Below are positions 8,562 to 42,398 of a DNA stretch of 64,000 bases, one piece after another (positions within the stretch are counted from its first letter, which is position 1; each line of letters starts with the position of its first letter). The notes beneath the pieces are model-generated. The model was not told the origin of the DNA. It made no database searches and saw only the letters and a list, made by a program, of their open reading frames with translations. Origin of the DNA: Eledone cirrhosa (lineage: Eukaryota); NCBI GenBank assembly GCA_964016885.1, contig OZ024764.1:20894001-20958000 (forward strand). Direction: 5' to 3'. The translations under genes and the position numbers were made by a program.

Positions 8562-9341
8562 ATGTCGAAAAATATAGTAAAATCACCATTCCACTGTGAT
8601 ATCTGTGGTAAATCATTCTCTCGTAGTAATCACCTAACTACTCACAGACGTATTCATACAGGAGAAGAGCCATTCCACTGTGATATCTGTGGTAAATCAT
8701 TCTCTCAGAGTAATCACCTAACTACTCACAAACGTATTCATACAGGAGAGAGACCATATCACTGTGATATCTGTGGTAAAACGTTCTCTAAAAATAATAA
8801 CCTAACTACTCACAAACGTATTCATACAGGAGAGAAACCATATCATTGTGATATCTGTGGTAAATCATTCCCTTGTAGTCAGCACCTAACTACTCACAAA
8901 CGTATTCATACAGGAGAGAAGCCATATCAATGTGATATCTGTGATAAATCATTCAGTGACAGTAGTAGCTTCAGTGTTCACAAACAAATTCATACAGGAG
9001 AGAAGCCACATCACTGTGACATCTGTGGTAAATCATTCAGTCACAGAAATGCCTTAACTACCCACAAACGTATTCATACAGGAGAGAAACCATATCACTG
9101 TCATATCTGTGGTAAATCATTCGGTAACAGAAGTAGCTTAGCTAACCACAAACGTACTCATACAGGAGAGAAGACACATCGCTGTGACATCTGTGGTAAA
9201 TCATTCCCTCATAGTTATACCTTAACTACCCACAAACATACTCATACAGGAGAGAAGCCATATCACTGTGACATCTGTGGTAAATCATTCTCTCAAAGTG
9301 GTAACTTAACCAAGCATGTGCGTATTCATACAGAAGTTTAG
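8562..9341 (+). CDS. C2H2 zinc-finger protein, 9 fingers, no effector domain (ZNF gene 1)
   Basis: Nine CxxC-x12-H-x3-H units with TGE(K/R/E)P linkers. Acceptor tatttcag| at 8350 and AATAAA at 9610. Confidence 0.93.
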
Positions 9342-9820
9342 CTGTATCAATATCAAACTCATTACATCATACTACAACAACAACAACAATTGTGTAGATC
9401 CATCATCCTTGCTAAAACTGGGGTTAACCTTGTAGGTTTTACCTATGACAGGGATCATAAAACCAGGTTTCCATTTTTGAAGCAGTGTTTGAAGATTTTG
9501 TGTAAATTGAAGTTTTTCACATTAAACTTTCATTTATTATACTTTAACAGGTAAGATATATATTTGTATTTTCAGTAAAGGTTTGGGCATTATGTAATTT
9601 AAACCTGCCAATAAAATGAAAACTTTTGTTGTTGCTAGTCTGACATTGATATTAATTCTATTGTCCTGTACGTTGTCTCACATATCACAGATTAAACAGA
9701 TTTTAACAATAACAACAGAAATCAATAACTTGTAAGCCTAATATCTAGCTTCCATTTTACCTATTTGATATTGTTGTTCCCCTCCTGTCTCTTCAGGTGT
9801 TTTAGATTTCAACTTCTATC

Positions 9821-10234
9821 ATCATCATCATCATCACCGTTTTACGTCCGTTCTTCCACGCTAGCATTGGTTAGACGGTTTGTCGTGTTGTGGGCAGTGT
9901 CTGGTCGGCTGACCATGCCTTGCTCATACAGGAACTGATTTGGCTTGATTTCTAAAGCTGGAAGTCCTTCCTAACACCAACCTCATTTACAGTGAGTGCT
10001 GGGTGCTTTTTTGTGGCGCCTACACGTTCACTTTACAGTGTGGGCTGGGTGCTTTTTTGCCGTGGCACCTCCACAACGACCTTGCACGGGGTGTGTGGGG
10101 AGGGGGGGGGGGGCATATTGTCTATATGCTTTAGCTCGTACCCATGGGAGGTCGGGTACGCTGTATTACTGCGTGACGCCAGAGATCACGGACGTGTGTC
10201 ATTGCCTTTAAGAGGTGTAATTGGGTATGGTCGG
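9821..10234 (-). mobile_element. Short retroposon (SINE-like) with RTE-type 3' end and (GAT)n tail
   Basis: 8-bp target duplication CTTCTATC at 9813-9820 and 10235-10242. Unit 2 has the empty site at about 26936. Confidence 0.8.
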
Positions 10235-10242
10235 CTTCTATC

Positions 10243-10420
10243 TACTGTACTATTCCATCACCAAGGCAACATTCATCTGGCTGACAGCTTACATCAACTA
10301 CAGATCTCATCAGTGGTTCACAACAGGCTGTCTGAAAGAAACTTTCAGATATCTTCTATGTCATAGCTATCAATCTCCTCCTCCTTATCATATGTATCAT
10401 GTAGAACATCTCTGAATTTA
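10243..10420 (-). mobile_element. RTE LINE relic (endonuclease-RT linker)
   Basis: The minus strand gives KYKFRDVLHDTYDKEEEIDSYDIEDI, similar to the RTE at about 30690-30870. Copies lie at 26945-27120 and 43316-43492. Confidence 0.7.
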
Positions 10421-10825
10421 TATTTAACAGGGAGATCTTTTACTGTCCTTACCCCTTTTGCTAGATTGTCTTGTACCTCTCTCACAGTCCCTCTAGATCT
10501 TATATTTAACAGGGAGATCTTTTACTGTCCCTACCCTTTCCTCTAGATTGTCTTATTACACTCTCACAGTCCCTATATATCATATTTAACAGGGAGATTC
10601 TTTACTGTCTCTACCCTTTTCTCTAGGTTGTCTTGTACCTCTCTCACAGTCCCTCTAGATCTTATATTTAACGGAGATATTTTACTATCCCTACCCTTTT
10701 CTCTAGGTTGTCTTGTACCTCTCTCACAGTCCCTCTAGATCTTATATTTAACAGGGAGATATTTTACTCTCCAACCCTTCTATCTCCAGATAGTCTTGTA
10801 TCTGTCAGTCCCTCTAGATCTTACA
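10419..10825 (+). repeat. ~82-bp minisatellite, about 5 copies
   Basis: atatttaacagggagatcttttactgtccctacccttttctctag... repeated. Confidence 0.9.
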
Positions 10826-39510: not shown

Positions 39511-40172
39511 TACAAATCTAGTCGTTTCCTGCTACTTTGTTCCCTGGGGTATGCCTTAGTATTTGACACCATCTATCTGTCTTACTCCCTAACTAGCAAG
39601 AAGTCAATCTGTCTCATGTGCTCACCTGATTGGTAGGTTATTAGGTGGTTGGTAGGTTTCTTGAAGTGTTGCAAATGGTTAGTTCACTTGCATCACAAAA
39701 TACAAGAAGCCTCACTCCTCCTTCGTTTCTTGAGCCATAACCATGACCACCATGTACCCCAGTGTATCCATCCTGGAGCTGTCCAACATGACCAGTGAAG
39801 TCCCCTGCTATTATAACTAGGTCTCTGTCATTGTGGTTAGCTCTACTTATTCCTTTTCTACATATGGAGCAGGGCCACTTTCCTGAAGGTGTCAGGGTCT
39901 TCTCTCCTATCCATTACCACTTTAGTTTTGGCTAAGTATATTCTCAGAACTTACCATTTCAAATTCTATATCTATAGTTGGTCATCTACATAGAGAAGTT
40001 TCCATAGACAGCCAGTCTTAAACCTCTCTGTTATGGCTTGGAGAACTATGATGAACAACAGTGGGCTGAGAACTAAACCATGATGAACTCCTACCTGTAC
40101 CTTCAATTCCTCACTAAACACACTTTACTGACAGCTTCTAACAAGTCATTCTTCTACACCTAATTTCCTTAA

Positions 40173-40378
40173 CCCTTTAGTATATAAACTGGCCATATCT
40201 GGCCAGAATTCTCCCACATCTTTCTGTTCAAACTGGCCCTAACTGGTCACTTATACTTATGTTAAGGTATTGTTCTCAAAATAAATAACATGAAAATCTC
40301 AGATTTGACATTATGAGAGATAGAGCATTTACTGTGAAAATATAATAGTAAATATAGAGTAATGTGAATACTAAAGGG
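40173..40378. mobile_element. piggyBac-like MITE (copy 3)
   Basis: TTAA|CCCTTTAGTAT...ATACTAAAGGG|TTAA, a perfect 11-bp TIR. Confidence 0.8.
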
Positions 40379-40380
40379 TT

Positions 40381-40677
40381 AATCTAATGTCACTAATAAC
40401 TACTTTTATCAGTCAGTTTAATCTAATGTCACTAATAACTACTTTTATCAGTCAGTATAATCTAATGTCACTAATAACTACTTTTATCAGTCAGTATAAT
40501 CTAATGTCACTAATAACTACTTTTATCAGTCAGTTTAATCTAATGTCACTAATAACTACTTTTATCAGTCAGTATAATCTAATGTCACTAATAACTACTT
40601 TTATCAGTCAGTTTAATCTAATGTCACTAATAACTACTTTTATCACTCAGTTTAATCTACTGCCACTAATAACTAAC
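40381..40677 (+). repeat. 39-bp minisatellite, about 7.5 copies
   Basis: Same unit as in units 1 and 2. Confidence 0.95.
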
Positions 40678-41030
40678 CTATGTTAGTCAGGAAATTCTTC
40701 ACCAAGGAAGGCCTTAGTATTTATTACAGTCCATTTATCAATATAGAAATATTATATGAAATTTGTACTGATGTATTACAAGTTTCTGAGTATCTTATAA
40801 TGTTCTTTTATTATTTCAGAATACCAGAGGACATTGACATTAAAGAGCACGTTACATCAGACATATCCTCAACATTAACCATTTCTAATGAAAGACACTA
40901 CCCATCATTTTCAAATAATTTTGAAAACACTCAACACTTTGAAGTGATTTAGTAATATAACTAAATTTCTCAGTATTAAGCTGTGAATTATGTGAGAAAC
41001 TGAGGTGATTGATATCTTTTAGTAGGAGAT

Positions 41031-42398
41031 ATGTCGAAAAATATAGTAAAATCACCATTCCACTGTGATATCTGTGGTAAATCATTCTCTCGTAGTAATC
41101 ACCTAACTACTCACAAACGTATTCATACAGGAGAGAAACCATATCACTGTGATATCTGTGGTAAAACGTTCTCTAAAAATAATAACCTAACTACTCACAA
41201 ACGTATTCATACAGGAGAGAAACCATATCATTGTGATATCTGTGGTAAATCATTCTCTCGTAGTAATCACCTAACTACTCACAAACGTATTCATACAGGA
41301 GAGAAACCATATCACTGTGATATCTGTGGTAAAACGTTCTCTAAAAATAATAACCTAACTACTCACAAACGTATTCATACAGGAGAGAAGCCATATCAAT
41401 GTGATATCTGTGATAAATCATTCAGTGACAGTAGTAGCTTCAGTGTTCACAAACAAATTCATACAGGAGAGAAGCCACATCACTGTGACATCTGTGGTAA
41501 ATCATTCAGTCACAGAAATGCCTTAACTACCCACAAACGTATTCATACAGGAGAGAAACCATATCATTGTGATATCTGTGGTAAATCATTCCCTTGTAGT
41601 CAGCACCTAACTACTCACAAACGTATTCATACAGGAGAGAAGCCATATCAATGTGATATCTGTGGTAAATCATTCAGTTACAGGAGTAGCATCAGAGTTC
41701 ACAAACAAATTCATACAGGAGAGAAGCCATATCACTGTGACATCTGTGGTAAATCATTCAGTCGCAGTAGTACCTTAACTAACCACAAACGTATTCATAC
41801 AGGAGAGAGACCATATCACTGTGATATCTGTGGTAAAACGTTCTCTAAAAATAATAACCTAACTACTCACAAACGTATTCATACAGGAGAGAAACCATAT
41901 CATTGTGATATCTGTGGTAAATCATTCCCTTGTAGTCAGCACCTAACTACTCACAAACGTATTCATACAGGAGAGAAGCCATATCAATGTGATATCTGTG
42001 ATAAATCATTCAGTGACAGTAGTAGCTTCAGTGTTCACAAACAAATTCATACAGGAGAGAAGCCACATCACTGTGACATCTGTGGTAAATCATTCAGTCA
42101 CAGAAATGCCTTAACTACCCACAAACGTATTCATACAGGAGAGAAACCATATCACTGTCATATCTGTGGTAAATCATTCGGTAACAGAAGTAGCTTAGCT
42201 AACCACAAACGTACTCATACAGGAGAGAAGACACATCGCTGTGACATCTGTGGTAAATCATTCCCTCATAGTTATACCTTAACTACCCACAAACGTACTC
42301 ATACAGGAGAGAAGCCATATCACTGTGACATCTGTGGTAAATCATTCTCTCAAAGTGGTAACTTAACCAAGCATGTGCGTATTCATATAGAAGTTTAG
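41031..42398 (+). CDS. C2H2 zinc-finger protein, 16 fingers (ZNF gene 3)
   Basis: Sixteen intact C2H2 units. Acceptor at 40819 and AATAAA at 42668. Confidence 0.94.
   Translation: MSKNIVKSPFHCDICGKSFSRSNHLTTHKRIHTGEKPYHCDICGKTFSKNNNLTTHKRIHTGEKPYHCDICGKSFSRSNHLTTHKRIHTGEKPYHCDICGKTFSKNNNLTTHKRIHTGEKPYQCDICDKSFSDSSSFSVHKQIHTGEKPHHCDICGKSFSHRNALTTHKRIHTGEKPYHCDICGKSFPCSQHLTTHKRIHTGEKPYQCDICGKSFSYRSSIRVHKQIHTGEKPYHCDICGKSFSRSSTLTNHKRIHTGERPYHCDICGKTFSKNNNLTTHKRIHTGEKPYHCDICGKSFPCSQHLTTHKRIHTGEKPYQCDICDKSFSDSSSFSVHKQIHTGEKPHHCDICGKSFSHRNALTTHKRIHTGEKPYHCHICGKSFGNRSSLANHKRTHTGEKTHRCDICGKSFPHSYTLTTHKRTHTGEKPYHCDICGKSFSQSGNLTKHVRIHIEV

Follow-up and report, generated by a model that had tools for sequence, protein, structure and literature searches.

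A tandem array of zinc-finger genes

The window examined here, a 64,000-nucleotide stretch of the Eledone cirrhosa genome (contig OZ024764.1, positions 20,894,001 to 20,958,000 of the forward strand; C25:20.89-20.96 Mb of the 3.0-Gb genome), is a tandem repeat with a unit of about 16.5 kb, and contains three zinc-finger (ZNF) genes and a truncated fourth unit. A six-frame scan and finger table identify three C2H2 arrays, all on the plus strand, with 9, 9 and 16 fingers: gene 1 (coding sequence 8562..9341), gene 2 (25684..26463), in which finger 8 is broken by an arginine in place of its first cysteine, and gene 3 (41031..42398). They are poly-C2H2 genes of the Krueppel type, with tandem C-X2-C-X12-H-X3-H fingers and TGEKP-type linkers in one exon. 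A preliminary description, made from the sequence alone, proposed that these genes diversify by shuffling whole fingers, and the finger table agrees with all 34 of the recognition helices that it listed, including RSNQ, RSQN, HSSS, RSST, three DRSS fingers, RSNH (in the broken finger) and QSGT in gene 2, and in gene 3 RSNH, KNNN, RSNH, KNNN, DSSS, HRNA, CSQH, YRSS and RSST followed by the helices of gene 1 fingers 3-9.

The arrays are related to each other, and to a further family member (L104), by blocks of fingers. Inside a single gene, the average difference between fingers is 15-17 nt; fingers 10-16 of gene 3 show 0-1 differences per 84 nt from fingers 3-9 of gene 1, and within gene 3 the pairs 2/10, 5/12, 6/13 and 7/11 are identical. 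Gene 1 corresponds to L104 minus three fingers, with 3 mismatches in 780 nt, and gene 3 is a mosaic that joins fingers 5-9 of L104 (its own fingers 5-9) to fingers 3-9 of gene 1 (its own 10-16), so that the additional fingers did not arise by local copying of the sequence beside them. The first and last fingers, untranslated regions (UTRs) and introns had been described as nearly identical; this holds where the flanks of the three units can be aligned (91-99%), but intron 1 has large deletion differences, including within its retroelement, a 39-bp non-coding minisatellite has 41.6 copies in intron 1 of gene 1 (6586..8208, plus strand), 17.6 in the gene 2 unit (24037..24723, plus) and 7.6 in the gene 3 unit (40379..40675, plus), gene 2 carries an additional 605-base leader segment, and the first and last fingers are 1-6 nt apart.

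Family matches on C25 extend from 19.13 to 23.86 Mb, a 4.7-Mb cluster. We retrieved 134 cluster loci by their likeness to gene 1, dropped three that are inverted or broken (L004, L012 and L015), counted one locus as two genes and added the three of the window, giving 135 genes for analysis; six loci of other families (L135-L140) are not among these. All 135 share 5' and 3' flanks with 88-100% identity to gene 1, and non-coding flanks diverge on average by 2.4-3.9% among cluster genes. A 26-mer of the candidate promoter has 169 exact copies and the sequence context of the stop codon 139, with all 100 listed places of each lying inside the 4.7-Mb interval; the cluster is one of at least 135 near-identical zinc-finger genes, and, with the exact stop motif present in 82 of the 135 analysed, a rough total near 230 can be derived (roughly 200-230 in all). 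There are 31 groups of near-identical genes, and when such genes are collapsed 95 lineages remain. In a protein search, Octopus vulgaris provides matches 3 and 4, with the top identities listed (63% and 61%), and a salmonid protein also reaches 61%. These identities, weak evidence by themselves, and an octopus-like codon style in the fingers would fit an octopus as the likely host.

Two sets of 5-7 genes are duplicated about 0.9-1.1 Mb away at 0.04-0.4% divergence (L049-L055 with L066-L072, and L096-L100 with L129-L133), and these may be either segmental duplications of very recent date or haplotypes that entered the assembly twice. In the three dropped loci the leader contains an inversion and the usual 3' end is missing.

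Gain, loss and exchange of whole fingers

Arrays in the family span 2-28 fingers, and of the 1856 units 1771 have a length of exactly 84 bp. The 135 genes encode 126 different DNA arrays and 102 contact-code strings, and the 95 lineage representatives contain 283 helices and 210 codes. The nearest copy of a finger is a median of 7 nt distant within its own gene and 0 nt distant in another lineage; shared descent accounts for part of this identity between lineages, yet an identical unit occupies many positions. Whole-finger differences are found on 9 of 40 sister edges, for which the mean flank divergence is 0.20%, representing 7 independent events over 8% of summed divergence. A single in-register insertion or deletion fits 11 of 14 pairs tested (three do not fit), and the breakpoints of the fitting pairs fall outside the helix in ten cases and are uninformative in one. 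Furthermore, 28 of the 95 lineages are mosaics with blocks of at least three fingers from at least two donors, as illustrated by L098, which consists of blocks from L030, L101 and L118. The proposal that internal 84-bp units are duplicated and reordered is supported by whole-finger insertions and deletions, mosaic arrays and in-register breakpoints.

Exchange also operates within fingers, with 11 of 259 private units being exact chimeras compared with 2 of 1279 controls, although with three new codes among them such chimeras are a real but minor source of novelty and not the main one. Nor is there support for the array as a special recombination hotspot: r2, a measure of linkage between variants, is 0.017 across the array but equally low across intron 2 (0.020), and in the flanks it is 0.03-0.08 for sites 50-200 bp apart. 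We set aside the four-gamete test, which recurrent mutation over 95 lineages would break. A silent marker shows a gradient along the arrays, with the share of GAC rising from 0.14 in the first fifth to 0.74 in the last, as expected if exchange occurs mostly between nearby positions.

Several further arrays are noteworthy. L061, with 10 fingers, lacks three fingers that carry the early stop of its 13-finger sisters L065 and L122, and finger loss may therefore reopen a frame. L037, L039 and L010 (C25 20.35, 20.56 and 19.34 Mb) each have 6-16 near-identical K/N-N-T-K-L-T-R fingers in a row, joined by a modified linker (TEEK or AEEK); these runs are the part of the family that most resembles PRDM9, and would suit a triplet-repeat target. 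A second cluster, at G000:C27:15.76-16.84 Mb (L135-L137), contains about 90 near-identical ZNF genes spaced approximately 10 kb apart; the lengths of their open frames change in steps of 28 residues, and given these steps whole-finger behaviour is probably general in the genome.

Probable selection on DNA-contacting residues

Among 753 unique internal units, entropy is 2.2-3.1 bits at the contact positions and 0.05-0.27 bits at the cysteine, histidine and phenylalanine positions; variation is focused at -1, +2, +3 and +6, in keeping with the earlier observation that differences concentrate in the helix. As a proxy for dN/dS (the ratio of replacement to silent changes) we counted changes along spanning trees that connect unique fingers, and weighted the opportunities at each site according to the mutation spectrum of the flanks. 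The contact ratio is 1.56 for all 696 internal units and rises to 1.86, 2.22, 3.18 and 3.96 for units present in at least 2, 3, 4 and 5 lineages respectively, whereas the ratio is 0.40-0.72 for the scaffold and 0.13-0.27 for the zinc core. The comparison suggested in the preliminary description, a per-finger tree with contacts set against scaffold, therefore returns values of 1.6-3 and 0.4-0.7. Contact to scaffold replacements number 67:175 among young differences and 87:50 among shared ones (Fisher p 1.6e-11, although the events are not independent). CpG hypermutation is rejected as the origin of contact diversity because the ratio remains 1.86-2.73 with CpG transitions removed, and a local mutation hot spot in the helix is rejected because contact codons accumulate silent changes at the global rate.

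Transcript structure and the question of an effector

Each unit contains, once, a near-invariant block with GCATGCGCA, ACTTCC and CACGTG motifs, which we take to be sites of the NRF1, ETS and E-box types, and an AT/GTAAGT splice donor that is unchanged in 35 aligned copies. This block is a candidate promoter with a putative short non-coding exon 1, at 2063..2166 for gene 1, 17965..18068 for gene 2 and 36543..36646 for gene 3, all on the plus strand. Exon 2 of gene 1 (8351..9550, plus) would include the leader, the coding sequence and a 210-nt tail; its predicted 5' acceptor, TTTCAG, is found in 133 of 135 genes and its GT donor in 135 of 135. In gene 3, a GT..AG intron within the 3' UTR (intron 2, 42609..44186, plus) begins 210 nt past the stop, and is followed by exon 3 (44187..44545, plus), a 3' UTR exon derived from a decayed zinc-finger exon and with a provisional 3' end. 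Run X1 contains the joint from 42608 to 44187, which skips 1578 nt, at a depth of 357, and the joint has zero depth in X2, X16 and X20. A family member is thus transcribed and spliced in organism A, although the joint fits no single gene specifically, and the concern that the genes may not be expressed is answered for the family, by one unlabelled run, but not for an individual gene. Runs of organism A contain 55-61% of query words, and X1 has no library or tissue record; runs with a share of 0.16 or below were not used as evidence, and X16 and X20 matched fingers and repeats only. No 5' splice joint is present among the matches listed in run X1.

An in-frame stop lies at most 7 codons upstream of the ATG in 134 of 135 genes. 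The 73 plus-strand frames of at least 30 residues between the promoter and the ATG of gene 2 gave no matches to KRAB, SET, BTB, SCAN or ZAD; Pfam matches to these frames were confined to the PHD and reverse transcriptase (RT) domains of a retroelement, plus two to minisatellite translations that we take as noise. A search for SET found no match inside the cluster; of the 18 matches genome-wide, the nearest lies at a distance of 1.75 Mb. The view that the genes have no recognisable effector is consistent with these searches; it depends on the first exon being non-coding, as the sequence suggests, and is supported by sequence rather than proven by RNA. We found no support for the retroelement PHD finger as a spliced-in effector, the loci covering that element only partly, and a first exon shared among many finger exons is unlikely, each unit having its own promoter motif.

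The 605-bp leader of gene 2 (25032..25636, plus) is ancestral and is present in 60 of 135 genes; it is homologous to the leaders of ZNF genes on other chromosomes, which start with a peptide of about 25 residues, and the old start codon of this peptide has decayed in the cluster family. This peptide, which has an IKCE motif that is presumably SUMO-consensus-like, stands ahead of the fingers in 150 or more ZNF frames distributed over many chromosomes (L135-L137 and L140-L160 among them) and has been lost in the cluster family. We reject it as a constrained effector of those other families, since it shows no clear constraint, with pN/pS of 0.95-1.2 in 22 of 23 copies aligned, from only 12 silent changes; a protein search with the peptide gave no relatives, and Atlas matches were generic.

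The donor of the intron 210 nt past the stop is kept in all 135 genes, and the position of this intron may expose the mRNAs to nonsense-mediated decay. Exon 3 (44187-44545, and 28145-28510 in the gene 2 unit) derives from a zinc-finger exon copy, now decayed, of which a leader, a start and half a finger are left, suggesting that two ZNF genes in tandem gave rise to the unit.

Comparison with PRDM9 and KRAB zinc-finger clusters

Likening the arrays to a PRDM9-style minisatellite was apt with respect to 84-bp units, in-register gain and loss, and diversity enriched at contact sites (PMC5519329; bioRxiv 10.64898/2026.09.07.749791), but not in other respects: the arrays are not homogenised, exchange extends across the whole unit, and non-coding minisatellites change as often. 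In 134 arrays the Baker statistic (the share of diversity at contacts) has a median of 0.33 and a range of 0.17-0.42, with DNA divergence between fingers of 0.18, and six other ZNFs of the genome have shares of 0.33-0.44 and divergences of 0.13-0.19; PRDM9 values are 0.687 and 0.079 in human and 0.910 and 0.034 in mouse (PMC5519329). The cluster range thus overlaps only the weakest PRDM9 values, 0.33-0.41 (PMC5519329), its fingers differing by 18% within an array compared with 3-12% in PRDM9, and its median share of 0.33 contrasting with 0.69-0.91 in human and mouse. Moreover, the finger pool is common to more than 100 paralogs, whereas that of PRDM9 comprises alleles of one gene, and the KRAB-SSXRD-PR/SET architecture is absent upstream of the arrays in the gene 2 frames and in the SET search of the cluster. 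The cluster is not PRDM9, and the resemblance is a loose one.

A young KRAB-ZFP cluster is a closer model. In mouse, single fingers and blocks of 2-7 are repeated or shifted among close paralogs (PMC5363842), and a cluster grows segmentally with strain-specific fingerprints (PMC12575710). Clustering, finger gain, loss and shifting, and probable positive selection at contacts are all seen here, as are a multi-megabase extent built of segmental duplications, many fingerprint arrays, transposons in the units and many broken copies (PMC5363842, PMC12575710). The Eledone cluster differs in being larger (102 distinct arrays, compared with 38-47 per strain in the mouse chromosome 4 cluster; PMC5363842, PMC12575710), very young (flanks about 3% apart) and invertebrate, and in having no KRAB or other effector that we found; an N-terminal KRAB on upstream exons is absent from the gene 2 frames, the 5' splice being unobserved, and because no KRAB was found the cluster is not KRAB-ZFP. 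Primate KZNF genes diverge most often through altered finger numbers, and contact residues are positively selected in expansions (PMC3126818, PMC2604467), but short conversion tracts occur in few genes, whereas paralog exchange is pervasive in the cluster, where block mosaics make up about 30% of lineages. Coleoid C2H2 expansions are clustered and lineage-specific (PMC9068888, PMC12513265), and in these respects the cluster resembles both them and the zebrafish FiNZ-ZNFs (PMC9068888, PMC12513265, PMC10547256), although FiNZ genes have an N-terminal domain and the cluster family has none. In the portion of PMC12513265 available, the word 'recombination' is absent and no finger-level exchange in cephalopods is described; a literature search, whose coverage is of papers outside subscription, found no description of finger-level shuffling in cephalopods.

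Cephalopods have among the largest zinc-finger expansions known, and these are usually linked to brain evolution; the cluster bears on the origin of new zinc-finger specificities and on what drives them. The phenomenon is real and extends further, with firmer support, than the preliminary description could show, yet the way these zinc fingers evolve is already known, and the cluster is a variant of it. It offers a measurable case, with a rate of finger change, mosaics with identifiable donors, likely contact-site selection and no recognisable effector, and indicates that the mode of evolution of mouse KRAB clusters can arise without KRAB. Gene 1, gene 3 and L104 provide matched pairs that differ by defined finger blocks and could be used in binding assays.

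Origin and likely role of the repertoire

We favor, with a probability of roughly 0.65, the explanation that this is a young tandem family of zinc-finger-only genes that exchange 84-bp fingers, with contacts under selection, and that forms a fast-renewing repertoire of DNA binders directed most likely against transposons or repeats. Its parts are not equally secure: the shuffling mechanism we regard as highly probable and positive selection at the contacts as likely, while transposons as targets, proposed by analogy, are a tentative suggestion. Misaligned pairing of 84-bp units, within a gene or between paralogs, would give in-register unequal crossing-over and gene conversion; crossovers would resolve in the conserved stretch of about 50 nt between helices, so that the helix moves as a cassette. 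Point changes in contact residues would be kept preferentially and then spread by the same exchange, yielding short DNA-binding proteins that presumably lack an effector. By analogy, and from the prediction that octopus ZNF motifs are in aggregate enriched in transposons (PMC10547256), the most probable targets would be transposons and repeats; an array without an effector might repress by steric blocking, or through partners bound by the array itself. A bolder version, about which we are doubtful, is an antibody-like repertoire of about 200 genes with one near-invariant promoter and a pool of about 200 finger codes, producing new arrays per approximately 1% of neutral divergence that differ between individuals, selected to track new transposons and satellites, with poly-KNTKLTR genes reading triplet repeats, and silencing without KRAB or any known domain.

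Several observations weigh against the favored explanation. Linkage between flank variants decays within 50-200 bp throughout the unit, which tells against a mechanism special to the array. On the same 40 sister edges two non-coding minisatellites change copy number, the 39-bp on 16 and the 82-bp on 5, so the rate of shuffling needs no selection. The contact ratio is only 1.08 among the youngest differences, and all of the dN/dS values are minimum-spanning-tree counts of recombining, non-independent units rather than a codon model, and exchange re-counts old changes, as PMC5519329 warns. Frames are open in 96 of 135 genes and disrupted in 39, 16 of these in the last finger only, and 185 of 1856 units are non-canonical, although both are expected of birth-and-death turnover. 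Expression is represented by one unlabelled run with no gene assignment; the 5' splice is unseen, and a coding exon could be joined through an acceptor that lies 5-8 nt ahead of the ATG. Finally, the loci were selected for likeness to gene 1 and are a biased sample, and in some near-identical pairs the assembly may have placed one gene twice, as its two haplotypes.

Much of this would also be compatible with turnover driven by mutation, in which an unstable minisatellite sits in a churning field of segmental duplications and selection only keeps fingers folded while contacts drift freely. Finger number changing no faster than the adjoining non-coding minisatellites, the decay of linkage everywhere in the unit, the disrupted frames and the contact ratio near 1.1 for the youngest changes all agree with it; we nonetheless consider it unlikely, as the contact ratio exceeds 1 and grows with finger sharing while that of the scaffold drops. 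Somewhat less likely still is diversification for the regulation of host genes in the nervous system, for which it can be said that the expanded C2H2 genes of cephalopods show nervous-tissue expression and fall into separate co-expression modules (PMC12513265); the candidate promoter is near-invariant across copies, and turnover within 1% divergence together with frequent broken copies would seem to fit an arms race better. We think it very improbable that the arrays are the DNA-reading half of a PRDM9-like system specifying hotspots or chromatin, for although they are minisatellite-like and three genes have near-identical KNTKLTR finger runs, there is no SET match inside the cluster, no domain in the upstream frames of gene 2 and no homogenisation of arrays. 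An assembly artefact, with the extra fingers of gene 3 and many paralogs being false duplications, is equally improbable. The identical internal finger pairs of gene 3 and the near-identical gene groups, some in long repeated blocks, could be so explained, and expansion of gene 3 in assembly was a concern of the preliminary description, but L104, at a distance of 2 Mb, has its YRSS and RSST fingers in matching order, 95 lineages remain after collapse, and unit-conserved contigs reach a depth of about 2000 in a DNA-like run, with no single-copy baseline.

Other features of the repeat unit

The fourth unit (51272..57291, plus strand, from self-alignment of the window) is truncated before its zinc-finger exon. 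It is cut off by a long interspersed element (LINE; 57290-60453, minus) with an open 957-residue endonuclease-RT frame (57580..60453), identified from open reading frames and a domain match; a 98% identical copy at 1-2020 (plus) lies directly before the gene 1 promoter. A broken hAT/SPIN-like transposase is present within the unit (14200..16286, minus; Spin-doc zinc finger, E 4e-6, and open-frame pieces), with a copy at 47396-49164. Intron 1 of gene 2 contains a broken non-LTR retroelement (19458..22550, plus), presumably CRE-like, with matches to PHD and RT domains and deletions that differ per unit, and intron 2 of gene 1 contains an 80-82-bp non-coding minisatellite (10418..10823, plus). 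The next family copies outside the window are on the minus strand, placing an inversion junction nearby.

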